The notes: a model not told the origin generated them from the letters alone. A stretch of DNA of 64,000 bases from Vulcanimicrobiota bacterium (GCA_963699285.1 OY969429.1:1018300-1082299), one strand, 5' to 3'. Shown: positions 13,627 through 20,367, counted from the stretch's first letter. Translations and numbers: made by a program.

Positions 13627-14851
13627 CTAAGCGCTGCGCGCGTCGTTGGCCGAATCGAAGAGCGCGGGCGGAGCCGCGCCTTCGCGCGTCGTCGTTGCGT
13701 CGAGCGCGGTGATGGCCTTGGGTTGCATGTCGATTCCGCCGATTTCCGGCAGCTCGTCGTCGGTATCGAGCGCGGCCTCGTCTTTGAGTTTGCGGCCCTG
13801 CGGCAGCAGGCGCGATTCGTACGAGTTCACTGCGGAATTAAAAGCGTCGACCGATCCGGCCAAGCTCTTACGTAACGCTTGCAGGTGCCGCGAGAATATT
13901 TGCGCGCGCTCGTAGAGTTCGCGTCCGATCGCCGCGATGCGCTTGGCGTTTTCTTCCTGGCGAACCGCCTGCCAGCCGAGCGCGAACGAACGTAACAGGC
14001 TGATCAAAGCGAGGGGCCCCGTAACGAGCACGCTCTTGTCGAGCGCGTACTCCATGAGCAGCGGATTCTCGCTGCAGGCGGCGCTCAAGAACGATTCGCC
14101 CGGCACGAACAGGATGACGAAGTCGGCGGAGTTGCGCGCGCTGGGATAGTTGCGTCGCGCCAGCGCATCCACGTGATCTTGCAGCGCCTTCGCGTACTGT
14201 TTGAGCAAGATTCGGCGCTCGTTCTCGTCGGGCGCTTCGAGTGCGGCCTGCATGGCGTCGATCGGCGCCTTTGCGTCGACGAAAATGCAGCGGTCGCCCG
14301 GTAAATTGACGGTCATGTCCGGACGAATGCGTCCGTCGTCGAGCGACACGGTCTGCTGCTCGCTGAAATCGCAGTGCAGCGACATGCCGGCTTTTTCCAC
14401 GACGTTGCGGCAGCTGCATCTCACCCCAGCGACCGCGGGTGGTCGGGTTGCGGAGCGCCGTGACGAGCGTGGACGTTTGCGTCGAGAGCTGCGAGGCGGC
14501 CAGTTCCAGATTTTGCGTACGGCTCATGAGGCCCGACATCGCCTCTTTCAGTTGGCCGCTGTCGAATTTGCGGTTCTTCTCGATGTCGGCGATCAGCCGG
14601 TTGAACTCGGTGAGCTGATCGTGCATCGGCTTGACCAGGTCCCCGACGCGCTCGCCCGCGCGCGCGGCCGTCGCGTCGCGCATTTCGTTCTTGGCCCGTT
14701 CGATGAGCGCTTCGATCGCCGACTCTTGCACGTGCGACCGTTCTTCCAAACGCGTCCGCAGCTCGGCGAGCCGGGTGCGCGCAAACAGCCACGTCACGAG
14801 ACTCCCGGCCGCCAGGCCGGCTAAAAGAAATTCCAGCGAGGCGGCGTTCAC
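13627..14851 (-). pseudogene. rmuC: DNA recombination protein RmuC, interrupted by an apparent 1-nt insertion near 14409-14410
   Basis: The N-terminal TM and coiled coil end in ..RGRWGEMQL, in the frame of ORF 13868..15124. The nuclease-like C-terminus (RNVVEKAGM..IFVDAKAP..FVILFVPGE) is in ORF 13627..14424. Removing one C from CTGCCGC joins them. GTG 14851 overlaps the upstream stop (GTGA). Confidence 0.75.
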
Positions 14852-15711
14852 GGCTGCGGTTGCCCGAGATGCGCGGCGACGAAAGCGAGCAGCCGCGCCC
14901 ACGCGTCCGATGCGGCGGTCGCCACGTACGCCGAGCGCTGGTCGTCGAAGAACGCGTGGCCGGCCTCGGGATAGATTTTGATGTCGTTCGGAACACTCAG
15001 CGCCGCGGCAAATGCGCGCACGCCGTCGGGTGGAATGCTGGTGTCGCGGCCACCGTAACTCCCCCACACCGGCATGTGGATCTTGGCTGGGTCCACGCCT
15101 TCGACCGCGCCGTAGAACGCGCACGTCGCAGCGAACGCCGCCGCGTTATCGATCGCTTGTAAGAGCGCGATGTGCCCGCCCATGCAAAAACCCATCACGC
15201 CGATTTTGCTCTTCGAAAATTTTCCGGCGAGCCAGGTGCGTCCGGCGAGCAAGTCCGCCGCGTTCTGTTTGTGATCCAGCTGTTTGGCGTAGGGCCGAAA
15301 GACGCTCGAGTCGCTGATGCCGTCGCCGCTGGGAGCGCCGAGGCGTGCGTACAAGTTCGGAGCGATCGCTGCGATGCCGGCTTTCGCAAGACGGCGCGCG
15401 GTATCGCGTATCGAGGTGTCCACGCCCCAGATGTGCATCGTGACGACCAGCGCGGGGACCGTTGCGGCCGCGCCCTTCGGCCAAGCCGCATACGCGTCGA
15501 TGGCGCCTCCCGGCGGCTCGAGGGTTACGTGCGCGGTCGAAATCGCCGGATCGTTCTCGGCAACGGACGGCGCGTGCGTTTGACCGAGTCCTTGCGCCAT
15601 GACGGCGGCGGTCGAAGCGGCGCTCGCGGTGGCGACGGTCGTGAGACCCAGGAACGTGCCGCGCGCGACATCGGGGCCGACCGCGGCGCTCGGATCGACG
15701 TGCTCGCTCAT
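14848..15711 (-). CDS. dienelactone hydrolase family protein
   Basis: Internal ATG 15711 of ORF 14848..15852. Nucleophile elbow GVMGFCMGG, C-terminal ..YPEAGHAFF.., and a hydrophobic export-like N-terminus. Confidence 0.75.
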   Translation of the reverse strand: MSEHVDPSAAVGPDVARGTFLGLTTVATASAASTAAVMAQGLGQTHAPSVAENDPAISTAHVTLEPPGGAIDAYAAWPKGAAATVPALVVTMHIWGVDTSIRDTARRLAKAGIAAIAPNLYARLGAPSGDGISDSSVFRPYAKQLDHKQNAADLLAGRTWLAGKFSKSKIGVMGFCMGGHIALLQAIDNAAAFAATCAFYGAVEGVDPAKIHMPVWGSYGGRDTSIPPDGVRAFAAALSVPNDIKIYPEAGHAFFDDQRSAYVATAASDAWARLLAFVAAHLGQPQP

Positions 15712-16137
15712 CAAATCCCGGTATTTGACTTTTGACGTCCGGCGACCTAGCAAATGCCGTTCTCGACAACGTGAACGGCGGCGTATAGGAGCCGCGTAAC
15801 GATCGCAATCATCGCGCACCCGGATGGCTCTCGCGCGGCCGCGCAACGACACGGACGACGCCCGTCATAGCGCAGTCGCTTCGCCGGCGCCGGCATGCCC
15901 GAGGTTCCGGTTGCTATCTCGCCGGGATTCCTCCGACTTCTCGGCCCACCCGGCGGCACGCGGATGCCCACGTTTGACCGTGGGTGGGAGATTCGAACCA
16001 CTCGGCCCCGAACGGGAGCTTCTAGGCCGCACGAGCGGACGAGTATGGTCGTTGCCACCCGCAGGCGGGCGGGGATACACTGTTCAGACTTGTAAAATCT
16101 AGTAGATACCATCCTTTCTGGAACGGAGTAAAGCGAG

Positions 16138-19100
16138 TTGGCGGACACGATGGTCACGGTGACGCTGCCCGAGATGGGCGAGTCGGTCACCGAAGGCTCC
16201 ATCGTCGAGTGGCGTAAGCACGTCGGCGACAGCGTCGCCGAGGGCGACCCGCTGGTCGAGGTTACCACCGACAAGGTCGACGTCGAGGTTCCGGCCACGG
16301 CGACCGGCGTAATCGCGCACATCCTGGCAGACGAAGGCGCCACCGTCGCGGTCGGCGCGGTGATCGCGCAAATCGACACGTCTGCCGTACTCGCGTCAGG
16401 CAACGGGGCGGCTGCTAAGGCCGTTCCACCTAACGGTGCCGTCGAACCGCATCCCGTAGCCGTCGTTCTTCCGGAGATGGGGGAATCGGTCACCGAAGGC
16501 ACGGTCGTCGAATTCCGCAAGAAACCCGGCGACCGCGTGCGTGAAGGCGAAACGATCGTCGAGATCACCACCGACAAGGTGGACGTCGAAGTGCCCGCGC
16601 CGGCCGACGGCGTGGTCACGAAGATTTTGGTCAAAGAGGGCGACGTCGTTGCGGTCGGCGCGCAACTTGCCGAAATCGACGCGGCTGCCGGCGCGACTGC
16701 GCCCGCGCAAACCACGCCAAGGCCCGCACCGTCGTCCGTCCCGGCGACTGCGCCGGCGCGCACCGGCGGCGAAGAATCGCTCGCATCGCCGCAGGCGCGG
16801 CGTGCCGCGCGCACACTCGATCTCGACGTCGCTGCGATTCGCGGTTCGGGTCCGTCGGGATTGATCTTGCGTTCCGACGTGCTCGCGCAGGCCTCGACGG
16901 CGAAGCGCCGCGCTCCCGCAGCTGCTCCCCAAGCAAACGTCGCGCCGATTCCGGCGGGCGCGCGCGTCACGCAGCTCAAAGGACCGGCCGCGACGCTTGC
17001 GGCTTACATGGAGCAGAGCTTAACGATCCCGACCGCTACGAGTTTTCGCACGCTCGGCGTCGACGTACTCGACGCGCGGCGCGCGGAGCTCAACGCGGCC
17101 ATCAAAGCGGCCGGACGCCCCGAAAAAATCTCGTTTACGCATCTGATCGCGTACGCGCTGGTTCGCGCGGCCGAAGAGATGCCCGCGATCGCGGCGAGCT
17201 TCAGGCGCGACGAGAACGGCGCTCCGCAGCGCATCGAGGCCGGCGTACATCTGGGTCTGGCGGTGGACACCGAGCGCAAGGACGGGACGCGCTTTTTGGT
17301 CGTGCCCGTCATCAAGGGCGCCGGTGCGCTCGACTTCGCCCACTTTCGCGCCGCCTACGAAGAGCTCGTCGGAAAAGCGCGCGACAACAAGCTGACGGCC
17401 GACGATCTCCAAGGCGCGACGCTCACGCTCACCAATCCCGGCGGCCTCGGCACGGTCGCCAGCGTTCCCCGCTTGACGGCCGGTGGAGCTATCGTCGCGA
17501 CCGGCGCGATCGGCTATCCGCCCGGGTTTGCAAGCGCGGACGCGCAAGCGTTGAGGTCGCTCGGCGTTTCCAAGGTGATGCAGGTGACCAGCACTTACGA
17601 TCACCGCGTCGTGCAAGGCGCGCAGTCCGGCGAATACCTGCGCCGCGTCGACGAATTGCTCCAGGGGCGGGCGGAATTTTACGAACAAGTCTTCACCTCG
17701 CTCGGTCTCGAAGCGGCGCCGTCGCCACAGCTCGACGGGGCGGCGGCTGCGCCGGTTTCTCGCCCTGCCGCGGCCGCATTTGCGGCGCCGGCCGACGAGA
17801 TCTTGCGCGCCGTCGGCGCCGGCATGGCGCTGGTTTCGGCCTATCGCACGCACGGCCACCTGGCGGCCAATCTCGATCCGCTAGGGTCGCACGCGCCCAG
17901 CGACTCCAAGCTCGATCCGGCGACGTACGGCCTGACGCCGGCCCTGCAAAGCGCGATTCCGGCGTCGGTCCTCGACGTCAAAGTCGGCGGCAAAACGCTG
18001 GCCGACGTGTTGCCGAAACTGCGCGACATCTACAGTTCGACCATCGCCTACGAGGTCGAGCACATCTCCAACACCGAGCAGCGCCGCTGGCTGCGCGAGT
18101 ACATCGAGACCGGCAAGCACAACGTCTCTCTTTCGCGAGAACGGCAGATCGACGTCCTACAGCGTCTTACTCGCGTCGAGGCGTTCGAACGTTATCTGCG
18201 CAAGGCGTTCCTCGGCCAGAAGACGTTCTCGGTCGAAGGCCTCGACGTTATGATTCCGATGCTCGAAGAAGTGCTGCGGATGTTGATCGCCGACGGCACG
18301 CCGAACGCCGTCATCGGCATGGCGCATCGCGGCCGCCTCAACGTCATCGCACACGTCGTGAACGCACCGTACGGCGAGATCCTCGAGGAGTTCGAAGCGG
18401 CGCACCGGCGCGGCGAAACCGGCGGTGACGACGACGTAACCGGCGACGTCAAGTACCATCACGGCGCGACCGGCGTCTATTCGGCGCCCAACGGTAAGTC
18501 GATCGCCGTCACGCTCGCGCACAACCCGAGCCACCTCGAGGCCGTCGACCCGGTCGTGGAAGGTCAGACCCGCGCGCTGCAGACCGATCGCGCGCGCAGC
18601 GTTCCGTCGGTCGACGCGCGCAAAGCCGCGCCCATCCTGATTCACGGCGACGCGGCCTTCACCGGTCAGGGCATCATCTCCGAAGTCTTCAACTTACAAT
18701 CGCTCCCCGGCTATGCCACCGGTGGCACGCTTCATCTCATCGCAAACAACCAGGTCGGCTTTACGACCGACGTTCGCGACTCGCGCTCGACCCGTTACGC
18801 GTCCGACCTTGCCAAGGGCTTCGACGTGCCGATCGTGCACGTCAACGCCGACGACGTGGAGGCGTGCATCGCCGCCGTGCATCTGGCCGTGGATTTCCGC
18901 CGTCGTTTCGATCGCGACGTTCTTATCGACTTGGTCGGTTACCGGCGCTCGGGACACAACGAACAAGACGAGCCCGCGTACACGCAGCCGTTGATGTACG
19001 ATAAAATCAAGGCGCATCCGACCGCGCGCGAGCTCTTTGCCAACAAGCTGGTCGCTCAAGGCGTCGTGACCGCGGACCAGGCCAACGCGATGGTCGAACA

Positions 19101-20367
19101 AGCCGCCGCGCGCCTTCAGGAAGAATACAAGCGCGTCAAGAGCCAGCGCGGTAGCGGCATGCTCGAGAAGATCGCGCTCGCGCCGGCGCCGCCGGCCGTC
19201 GCGCTCGCGCCGATCGATAAAGCACGACTGCTTGCGTGGAGCGAGGGGCTGGTCGGCGTTCCGGACGGATTCACCGTCAACCGGAAGCTGGTCACGCAGT
19301 TCGATCGCCGCAAGGCGACGATCGTCGAAAAGAATCTCGTCGATTGGGGAATGGCTGAAGGCCTCGCGTTCGCGTCGCTGCTGGCGTCCGGCGTGCCGGT
19401 TCGCCTCACCGGCCAAGACACCGAACGAGGGACGTTCAGTCACCGCCATGCCGTCCTACACGACCCGTCCAGCAACGCGACGTACGTACCGCTGCAGCAC
19501 GTGGACGGAGCGCGTGCTTCGTTCGAGATTTTCAACAGCCCGCTGTCGGAATACGCGTGCGTCGGTTTTGAATACGGGTACGCCGCCGAAGTTCCGGCGG
19601 CGCTGGTTCTGTGGGAAGCCCAGTTCGGCGATTTCGTCAACGGAGCCCAGATCGTCATCGATCAGTTCATCGCCGCGGGTCAAGCGAAGTGGGGCCAGAC
19701 CTCGCGCCTGACGCTGTTGTTGCCCCACGGATACGAAGGCCAGGGACCCGAGCACTCCAGCGCGCGTTTGGAACGCTTCTTGCAACTGGCGGCCGAGGGA
19801 AACTTGCGCGTCGCCTATCCGTCAACGGCCGGTAACTACTTCCACTTGCTGCGCTTGCAGGCCGGCATGCCGAATCCGGTGCCGCTGGTCGTCATGACGC
19901 CCAAGTCGCTGCTGCGCCTCGAAATCGCCTCCGGCAATCTCGACGACATGGCGACCGGTTCGTTCAAGCCGATCGTGGACGATCCGCGTCCGCTCGACAA
20001 GAATGCGATCGAGCGCATCCTGCTATGCACGGGAAAGATCTACTACGATCTCATCGCGTCCGAACGGTACGCGGCGCTGCAGAAAACGGCGATCGTGCGC
20101 ATCGAACTGCTCTCGCCCATGCCCGGCGAAGCGATCAACGCCGTTCTCGACACGTATCCCAACGCGAAACGCCTGGTGTGGGTGCAAGAAGAGCCCAAGA
20201 ACATGGGCGCGCGGGCCTACGTCCGCCGCCGCCTGATCGAACGCATGCGGCGTCCGCTCGACATCGACTACATCGGCCGTTCGTATCGTGCGAGCCCGTC
20301 CGAAGGCTACCCGGGAGCGCACGCCGTCGAGCAAGAGCGCGTTATCGAGGCCGCGCTGAACGAGTGA
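16138..20367 (+). CDS. multifunctional 2-oxoglutarate dehydrogenase: 2 lipoyl domains + E3-binding domain + E2o-like acyltransferase core + E1o (Kgd/OdhA-like)
   Basis: 1409 aa. There are two copies of LPEMGESVTEG..TTDKVD.. (lipoyl Lys codons at ~16270 and ~16573). PSBD-like ASPQARRAARTLDLDVAAIRGSGPSGLILRSDV. E2 core ends TSTYDHRVVQGAQSG. The rest shows E1o hallmarks (GMAHRGRLNV, HGDAAF.GQG, EAQFGDF.NGAQ). Confidence 0.85.
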   Translation: MADTMVTVTLPEMGESVTEGSIVEWRKHVGDSVAEGDPLVEVTTDKVDVEVPATATGVIAHILADEGATVAVGAVIAQIDTSAVLASGNGAAAKAVPPNGAVEPHPVAVVLPEMGESVTEGTVVEFRKKPGDRVREGETIVEITTDKVDVEVPAPADGVVTKILVKEGDVVAVGAQLAEIDAAAGATAPAQTTPRPAPSSVPATAPARTGGEESLASPQARRAARTLDLDVAAIRGSGPSGLILRSDVLAQASTAKRRAPAAAPQANVAPIPAGARVTQLKGPAATLAAYMEQSLTIPTATSFRTLGVDVLDARRAELNAAIKAAGRPEKISFTHLIAYALVRAAEEMPAIAASFRRDENGAPQRIEAGVHLGLAVDTERKDGTRFLVVPVIKGAGALDFAHFRAAYEELVGKARDNKLTADDLQGATLTLTNPGGLGTVASVPRLTAGGAIVATGAIGYPPGFASADAQALRSLGVSKVMQVTSTYDHRVVQGAQSGEYLRRVDELLQGRAEFYEQVFTSLGLEAAPSPQLDGAAAAPVSRPAAAAFAAPADEILRAVGAGMALVSAYRTHGHLAANLDPLGSHAPSDSKLDPATYGLTPALQSAIPASVLDVKVGGKTLADVLPKLRDIYSSTIAYEVEHISNTEQRRWLREYIETGKHNVSLSRERQIDVLQRLTRVEAFERYLRKAFLGQKTFSVEGLDVMIPMLEEVLRMLIADGTPNAVIGMAHRGRLNVIAHVVNAPYGEILEEFEAAHRRGETGGDDDVTGDVKYHHGATGVYSAPNGKSIAVTLAHNPSHLEAVDPVVEGQTRALQTDRARSVPSVDARKAAPILIHGDAAFTGQGIISEVFNLQSLPGYATGGTLHLIANNQVGFTTDVRDSRSTRYASDLAKGFDVPIVHVNADDVEACIAAVHLAVDFRRRFDRDVLIDLVGYRRSGHNEQDEPAYTQPLMYDKIKAHPTARELFANKLVAQGVVTADQANAMVEQAAARLQEEYKRVKSQRGSGMLEKIALAPAPPAVALAPIDKARLLAWSEGLVGVPDGFTVNRKLVTQFDRRKATIVEKNLVDWGMAEGLAFASLLASGVPVRLTGQDTERGTFSHRHAVLHDPSSNATYVPLQHVDGARASFEIFNSPLSEYACVGFEYGYAAEVPAALVLWEAQFGDFVNGAQIVIDQFIAAGQAKWGQTSRLTLLLPHGYEGQGPEHSSARLERFLQLAAEGNLRVAYPSTAGNYFHLLRLQAGMPNPVPLVVMTPKSLLRLEIASGNLDDMATGSFKPIVDDPRPLDKNAIERILLCTGKIYYDLIASERYAALQKTAIVRIELLSPMPGEAINAVLDTYPNAKRLVWVQEEPKNMGARAYVRRRLIERMRRPLDIDYIGRSYRASPSEGYPGAHAVEQERVIEAALNE

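Follow-up and report, generated by a model that had tools for sequence, protein, structure and literature searches.

A probable full-fusion 2-oxoglutarate dehydrogenase, with lipoyl and E3-binding domains in cis, in a Vulcanimicrobiota bacterium

We analysed a stretch of 64,000 nucleotides (the window) from the genome of a Vulcanimicrobiota bacterium (GCA_963699285.1 OY969429.1:1018300-1082299). Window positions 16138-20367 of the plus strand contain one uninterrupted open reading frame (ORF) of 1409 amino acids (aa), starting with a TTG codon at 16138. We consider it quite likely, judging from sequence, that this gene encodes a complete E2o-E1o subunit of 2-oxoglutarate dehydrogenase (OGDH), a full fusion acting in cis that belongs to the clade with the LBD-PS-E2-E1 architecture and derives from proteins of the OdhA type. 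The design was described before and is the rule in this bacterial class, which makes the protein a further member of a known architecture. The new points are the wider phyletic spread of the architecture, its genomic corollaries, and evidence that it is a derived form. A second possible start, ATG at 16150, gives the 1405-aa version present in public databases (P0002). The modules are separated by Ala/Pro-rich linkers and are arranged as follows.

16138..20367, plus strand: whole ORF, LBD-LBD-PSBD-E2o core-E1o, 1409 aa plus stop codon
16156..16374, plus strand: lipoyl domain 1, aa 7-79, PF00364, with K46 in TTDKVDVEVPA; genome position G000:C1:1034455-1034673
16462..16680, plus strand: lipoyl domain 2, aa about 109-181, PF00364, with lipoyl-lysine K147 and Ala/Pro-rich linkers on either side
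16780..16884, plus strand: peripheral-subunit (E3) binding domain (PSBD), aa 215-249, PF02817, 37.4 bits against a cut-off of 23.7
16966..17664, plus strand: E2o succinyltransferase core of the OdhA/Kgd type, aa 277-509, PF00198 (2-oxoacid_dh), 146.5 bits
17665..17817, plus strand: variable E2-E1 linker, aa 510-560, in frame
17818..20364, plus strand: E1o, 2-oxoglutarate decarboxylase/dehydrogenase dependent on thiamine diphosphate (ThDP), aa 561-1409
18226-19146, plus strand: E1_dh, aa 697-1003, Pfam
19339-19917, plus strand: Transket_pyr, aa 1068-1260, Pfam
19936-20358, plus strand: OxoGdeHyase_C, aa 1267-1407, Pfam

All domains of the fusion protein scored above their own Pfam gathering cut-offs, and their order in the single polypeptide is PF00364, PF02817, PF00198, PF00676, PF02779, PF16870. 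Biotin_lipoyl (PF00364) matched twice, with 138.6 bits in all, and the TTDKVDVEVPA lipoyl-lysine motif is intact in both copies (K46 and K147). The E3-binding module also occurs in relatives: PF02817 was matched in P0142, and the PSBD motif was observed in eight of the nine inspected N-termini. The E1o part contains the ThDP motif HGDAAF..(x)..NNQVGFTT and matches TIGR00239 with 987 bits. The NCBIfam model NF008907, which describes the multifunctional Kgd/OdhA proteins, covers aa 219-1408 with 1443.7 bits against a cut-off of 878. The first-pass annotation, made from the sequence alone, had proposed an E2o-E1o fusion of the OdhA/Kgd type carrying lipoyl and E3-binding domains in cis. Its coordinates and motifs all proved correct, and the Pfam set (two lipoyl domains, E3_binding, 2-oxoacid_dh and a full E1o) is complete; the lipoyl and PSBD modules, whose absence from domain searches would have told against it, were both detected. 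The motif that is characteristic of the SucA N-terminus (PF16078, 2-oxogl_dehyd_N) was not found anywhere in the fusion protein by the Pfam search, and a separate search for a remnant of it in the E2-E1 linker gave no signal up to an E-value of 10.

The catalytic motif of the E2o core is D488-H489-R490..Q493-G494 (DHRVVQG, aa 488-494), that is, DHRxxQG in place of DHRxxDG. The core ends with TSTYDHRVVQGAQSG, and its counterpart in the KGD protein of M. smegmatis is STYDHRIIQGAESG; the alignment confirms that the two have the same variant, as the annotation had held.

The integrity of the gene had to be considered with care, since the genome's two remaining 2-oxoacid dehydrogenase loci are both frameshifted. 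The AceE-AceF locus (G000:C1:594980-596340) and the E1alpha/E1alpha/E1beta/E2 locus (G000:C1:1857260-1861900) are each spread over two or three reading frames, and these breaks look like single-base indels of the assembly rather than pseudogenes. A further split was observed in the window at 13627-15124 on the minus strand, where the overlapping ORFs 13627-14424 and 13868-15124 match different parts of RmuC; this suggests another single-base frameshift of the assembly. One could thus imagine that an indel in an error-prone long-read assembly has merged separate sucB and sucA genes. On the other hand, a search with aa 1-560 retrieved more than 120 proteins from the NCBI, JGI, ENA and Logan assemblies, most of them about 1400 aa long, with the same continuous frame and the same Pfam set. 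All these homologues have two TDK motifs and the DHRV(I/V)QG motif (DHRVTQG in one). The protein P0003, found in a JGI metagenome, shares 91.9% identity with the fusion protein across 1403 aa, and the two E2-E1 linkers are identical. The junction is collinear and gap-free relative to independent assemblies, more distant homologues are also collinear, and the same ORF is present in a cultured isolate, Patulibacter minatonensis DSM 18081 (L058). The comparative evidence decides against an artefact, the probability of which we regard as negligible, and we take the fusion gene to be real and intact.

The fusion gene is the only E1o gene in the 2.65-Mb genome, and no separate SucA or SucB-type E2 was found there. 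Two other E2 genes are present, both with the canonical DHRV(I/V)DG motif. The first, at about 592-596 kb, is of the AceF type with one lipoyl domain and immediately follows a homodimeric AceE. The second is the last gene of an E1alpha/E1alpha/E1beta operon (about 1857-1862 kb). The core of the AceF protein gives a gap-free alignment up to the C-terminal end of the cubic E2p of A. vinelandii (...LLRDFRRVLL and ...LLADIRAILL), and thus lacks the three-residue insertion of the actinobacterial proteins. This insertion has been tied to the trimeric E2p of organisms with a lipoyl-less OdhA (Bruch et al., bioRxiv 10.1101/2020.07.24.212647). At 1711-1714 kb, the genome encodes a lipoamide dehydrogenase (TIGR01350, 541 bits), clustered with lipA and a LipB-like gene:

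G000:C1:1711174-1714242, minus strand: lipoamide dehydrogenase, LipB-like octanoyltransferase, lipoyl synthase

This cluster is distant from all three dehydrogenase loci. In sum, the genome-wide search showed canonical AceE/AceF and the lpd-lipB-lipA cluster, and no sucA or sucB. A canonical AceF, the absence of SucB and the presence of Lpd, LipA and LipB would fit an OGDH that is independent of the pyruvate dehydrogenase (PDH) complex.

The host had been thought not to be actinobacterial, and it indeed belongs to Eremiobacterota. In a sample of 151 genomes from the GTDB phylum of the window, the fused gene was found in all 81 genomes of the same class (Eremiobacterota; families f1, f2 and f3). 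The ORFs of this class are about 1310-1345 aa long when they have one lipoyl domain and about 1405-1460 aa when they have two. Two families of the phylum with large genomes have a canonical SucA (about 925-1030 aa, as lengths of open frames), immediately followed by E2 in the three genomes checked. E1o was not found in the remaining families of the sample. A lipoyl-less Kgd-like protein of 1202 aa (L097, G092:C523:7500-12500) was observed in another family of the same phylum. It groups with a lipoyl-less lineage of Thermoanaerobaculia and actinobacterial proteins, apart from its phylum-mates. Both transfer and contamination are possible explanations, because contamination of the bin is about 6% and its contigs number about 1000.

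A wider scan considered one genome per GTDB species. The LBD-PSBD-core arrangement was found in Thermoleophilia (Solirubrobacterales, Thermoleophilaceae, Conexibacteraceae, Miltoncostaeaceae and Patulibacter), in Candidatus Dormibacterota, and in Eremiobacterota/Vulcanimicrobiota (Baltobacteraceae and Vulcanimicrobiaceae). In the class of Patulibacter, at least 34 of 101 genomes contain the full fusion. Lipoyl-less fusions of the OdhA type occur in Actinomycetes, Acidimicrobiales, Gemmatimonadales, Acidobacteriota, Bacteroidota/Ignavibacteria and Balneolota. The full fusion was also observed in metagenome-assembled genomes labelled Bifidobacteriaceae, Bifidobacterium breve and Chlamydiae bacterium (L035, L053, L054). 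L053 groups with Thermoleophilia by similarity, as do L035 and L054 in trees, and these bins are probably mislabelled or contaminated. The annotation had presented the architecture as unusual and unreported. This did not survive: an identical Pfam architecture was described by Bruch et al. in 2020, all 81 sampled genomes of the class carry it, and PGAP routinely names such proteins "multifunctional oxoglutarate decarboxylase/...".

The origin of the architecture was considered using phylogenetic trees. E1o trees were built with IQ-TREE under the LG+C20+F+G4 model and rooted on SucA of E. coli together with canonical SucA from two phyla. In the careful tree (46 rows, 856 columns; support is given as UFBoot/SH-aLRT), the lipoyl-bearing forms of Thermoleophilia, Dormibacterota and Eremiobacterota constitute one clade (99/97), which is joined by two lipoyl-less lineages (100/99). 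The next branch outwards is formed by unfused Gemmatimonadota E1o genes (100/100, with a long stem), and all these together with the other lipoyl-less fusions split from canonical SucA at 94/96. Inside the lipoyl-bearing clade, Eremiobacterota (98/96) group with Dormibacterota (100/97), followed by Thermoleophilia of the Miltoncostaeaceae type and then by the other Thermoleophilia. Quick trees of 58 and 61 rows gave the same result. When all lipoyl-less fusions were placed in one clade, the approximately unbiased (AU) test on the E1o data rejected this topology (p = 3e-10), which would be needed if an ancestor with lipoyl domains had lost them a single time.

In the tree of E2 cores, all fused cores form one clade, far from the canonical SucB, AceF and BCKDH cores, even the ones that this genome encodes. 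The root of this tree on canonical cores was discarded as unreliable: the outgroup branch has a length of 3.4 substitutions per site, the root is supported at about 80%, and the likelihood is higher for the constrained alternative. When the lipoyl-bearing forms were held as one clade, the likelihood on the E2-core data was higher (p-AU 0.80), and thus these data are compatible with the E1o tree.

The N-termini show a complementary pattern. The SucA N-terminal motif was observed upstream of the core in all nine inspected N-termini of lipoyl-less proteins, with a PF16078 score of 33.5 bits in the example from Gemmatimonadales. Since the lipoyl-bearing clade is nested among lipoyl-less proteins of the OdhA type, the full fusion appears to be a secondary re-completion rather than the ancestor of OdhA. 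Taken together, the trees and the distribution of the N-terminal motif make a single replacement of the docking peptide by the LBD-PSBD module the most economical history. It would start from an OdhA-type protein consisting of a docking peptide, an E2 core and E1o. Then a single swap would have put the LBD-PSBD module in the place of the SucA-like N-terminal docking peptide. Afterwards the number of lipoyl domains would have gone back and forth between one and two, some copies being without the lysine, and the full fusion would have become fixed in Eremiobacteria, Dormibacteria and many Thermoleophilia.

The annotation had suggested an ancestral or alternative form of the OdhA-type fusion; "alternative" holds, whereas "ancestral" is not supported. 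According to the ancestral scenario, OdhA/Kgd of actinomycetes arose from the full fusion by loss of the lipoyl and E3-binding domains. It has some appeal, as no route to such a protein is simpler than an end-to-end joining of sucB and sucA, the full fusion is carried by Thermoleophilia, which branch deeply within Actinomycetota, and the E2-core tree with its very distant canonical outgroup has the root inside the lipoyl-bearing forms. However, that root is the discarded one. The E1o data, with 856 columns and close outgroups, make the lipoyl-bearing forms derived and reject the split that this scenario requires. Moreover, PF16078 lies upstream of the core in every examined lipoyl-less lineage, including the nearest relatives of the lipoyl-bearing clade, and would have to be regained several times. 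We thus consider the ancestral scenario unlikely.

Six Gemmatimonadota genomes (G374, G361, G363, G392, G386, G344) contain unfused E1o genes (L105-L110), 923-948 aa long, in which the SucA N-terminal motif is present; no E2 was found within 3 kb of them. They fall within the clade of fused OdhA-type proteins, next to the lipoyl-bearing forms (100/100), and the E2s in the five genomes checked are canonical only. These genes may be products of fission that have lost the E2 core. Their position indicates that fusion and fission events have occurred in this region of the tree, and so it could be argued that in the lineage of the window an ordinary sucB was joined to sucA independently of the OdhA-type fusion. 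Such convergence is very unlikely. The DHRxxQG motif of the E2 core is specific to OdhA, and the core groups with all fused cores away from canonical SucB, AceF and BCKDH; the match to NF008907 extends from the PSBD as far as the C-terminus (1443 bits); and the closest relatives in the tree are lipoyl-less fusions of the OdhA type. In addition, no free-standing E2o with an OdhA-type DHRxxQG core was found beside the unfused E1o in five Gemmatimonadota genomes.

Large E2-core scaffolds are the textbook feature of 2-oxoacid dehydrogenase complexes; OdhA showed that actinobacteria depart from this rule, as its lipoyl arms are borrowed from PDH. For the full fusion we propose the following mechanism. 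The C-terminal ThDP domain would decarboxylate 2-oxoglutarate and reductively succinylate the lipoyl-lysines of the same chain, K46 and K147. The flexible Ala/Pro arms would bring the succinyl-dihydrolipoyl group to the OdhA-type E2o core, where succinyl-CoA would be made with the participation of His489. The PSBD would recruit the dihydrolipoamide dehydrogenase (Lpd) of the genome, and the arm would be re-oxidised. By homology with OdhA/KGD (8p5r, 8p5t), the particle may be a hexamer of E2o trimers bridged by E1o dimers, with 12 lipoyl arms in cis, no large E2 core and no dependence on the E2 of PDH. An OdhA-like hexamer is probable because the C-terminus of the core continues into E1o, which precludes the trimer-trimer contacts of a 24-mer. 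Lipoylation, use of the arms in cis, binding of E3 and the oligomeric state are what we infer from homology and motifs. The protein would thus probably form a self-sufficient E1o-E2o particle needing only E3.

The opposite possibility is that the lipoyl and E3-binding domains have a vestigial or accessory role, and that the protein works like OdhA, in a mixed supercomplex, with lipoyl groups supplied in trans by the E2 of PDH. The E2o-E1o body is indeed close to OdhA/KGD (about 920 bits to 8p5r), and the second lipoyl domain lacks the lysine in some relatives. On the other hand, all 120 close homologues have the PSBD and at least one lipoyl domain in which the TDK lysine is kept; the N-terminal segment used by OdhA for contact with E2p is absent from the fusion protein; and the AceF of the genome has a canonical C-terminus without the insertion linked to trimeric actinobacterial E2p. 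This makes dependence on PDH quite improbable. With some reserve, we favour a fully self-contained OGDH: an OdhA-like hexamer with 12 arms and E3 docks of its own, without a large E2 scaffold or coupling to PDH, whose OdhA-type ancestor would have regained a lipoyl/PSBD module in place of the docking peptide.

Several observations weigh against the proposal of a cis-acting, derived enzyme. Firstly, the second lipoyl domain is degenerate and lysine-less in L098 (G115, family f3) and in P0125, e.g. VEVDADGSLIEIP, and presumably is not lipoylated there. The PSBD of L068 from Dormibacterota looks degenerate and truncated, so that not every module seems to be needed always. Secondly, the group used in the AU test was defined after inspection of the tree, the rooting of the E1o tree rests on six canonical SucA sequences, and the basal branching among the lipoyl-less lineages is not resolved in it. 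Finally, the assembly contains many single-base indels outside the fusion gene, and all members of the LBD-PS-E2-E1 architecture are known from sequence alone.

If the proposal of a self-contained OGDH is true, the actinobacterial solution of borrowed lipoyl groups has been reversed, and the reversal has been fixed across Eremiobacteria, Dormibacteria and many Thermoleophilia. The full fusion would be a minimal stand-alone 2-oxoacid dehydrogenase machine. The name used in databases, that of the multifunctional Kgd/OdhA enzyme, hides the cis lipoyl and E3-binding modules. As the sole OGDH of an entire class of soil bacteria without cultures, occurring also in Dormibacterota and in cultured Thermoleophilia (Patulibacter) and having a derived origin, the full fusion offers a good system for comparing lipoyl arms in cis and in trans. 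To our knowledge, the full-fusion form has never been purified.

The gene is solitary. Its upstream neighbour, on the minus strand, encodes a dienelactone hydrolase, and its downstream neighbour is a TspO gene. The 285-nucleotide spacer upstream of the fusion gene was searched for riboswitches and leaders and had no Rfam match. It contains one promoter-like site:

16052..16081, plus strand: TTGCCA-18-TACACT, a match to the consensus only

The promoter scan yielded this single site against 0.5 expected from shuffled sequences. Three ORFs of the genome encode FHA domains. A search for an OdhI/GarA-type regulator, which was only superficial, gave as the sole small FHA protein one of about 97 aa (G000:C1:1351355-1351711), without the N-terminal extension carrying the phospho-motif. 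The residue of the fusion protein that aligns with the phosphomimetic Asp795 appears to be Gln988, depending on the offset of the PDB-chain numbering.

Three known systems can be compared with the fusion protein. The closest is the LBD-PS-E2-E1 protein of Bruch et al. (bioRxiv 10.1101/2020.07.24.212647), who searched finished genomes by Pfam architecture. They reported it from only three genomes, as a "full fusion of E2 and E1o" in Thermoleophilia, then "never reported before", and speculated that it may function without a lipoyl domain in trans. The literature search found no other paper mentioning this architecture, which is thus known but uncharacterised. Searches for Eremiobacterota together with 2-oxoglutarate dehydrogenase or the tricarboxylic acid cycle had no matches. 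The work of Bruch and co-authors reportedly appeared later in PNAS, in 2021. The protein of the window has the identical Pfam architecture (PF00364 once or twice, PF02817, PF00198, PF00676, PF02779 and PF16870, with PF16078 absent), falls into the same clade in both the E1o and the E2-core trees, and is 50-56% identical over the first 700 aa. Unlike the proteins reported earlier, it comes from Eremiobacterota (others are from Dormibacterota), that is, from outside Actinomycetota, and it is universal among the sampled genomes of its class.

The second system is the lipoyl-less OdhA/KGD (8p5r, 8p5t, 2xt6), the hexameric structure and regulation of which were described by Yang et al. 2023 (PMC10415282). 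Proteins of this kind form a homohexamer of about 0.8 MDa, are inhibited by an FHA protein (OdhI/GarA) and are activated by acetyl-CoA. Matches to solved structures have E-values down to 1e-276: KGD of M. smegmatis (8p5r) aligns with aa 253-1406 (922.6 bits), and OdhA of C. glutamicum (8p5t) with aa 251-1407 (870 bits). In both cases an E2o core is fused upstream of E1o, the similarity extends over about 1150 aa, and the motifs STYDHR(I/V)(I/V)QGA of the core and HGDAAF...NNQ(I/V)GFTT of the ThDP site are common; by analogy, the same hexameric assembly may be presumed. However, OdhA/KGD has neither a lipoyl nor an E3-binding domain, whereas the fusion protein has two lipoyl domains and a PSBD. 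OdhA/KGD begins with the helical 2-oxogl_dehyd_N segment, which is absent here. It borrows the lipoyl groups of a trimeric E2p with a C-terminal insertion, whereas the AceF of this genome is canonical.

The third system is formed by SucA and SucB of E. coli. SucA (2jgd) aligns with aa 563-1408, and the E1o part is 44% identical to it. The set of domains is the same and so is the expected chemistry, but in E. coli E1o and E2o are encoded by separate genes, and here by one chain. SucB has DHRxxDG, and its free C-terminus serves to build a 24-mer core, whereas here the core runs on into E1o. Finally, SucA starts with an N-terminal peptide docking E2 and E3, which the fusion protein does not have.

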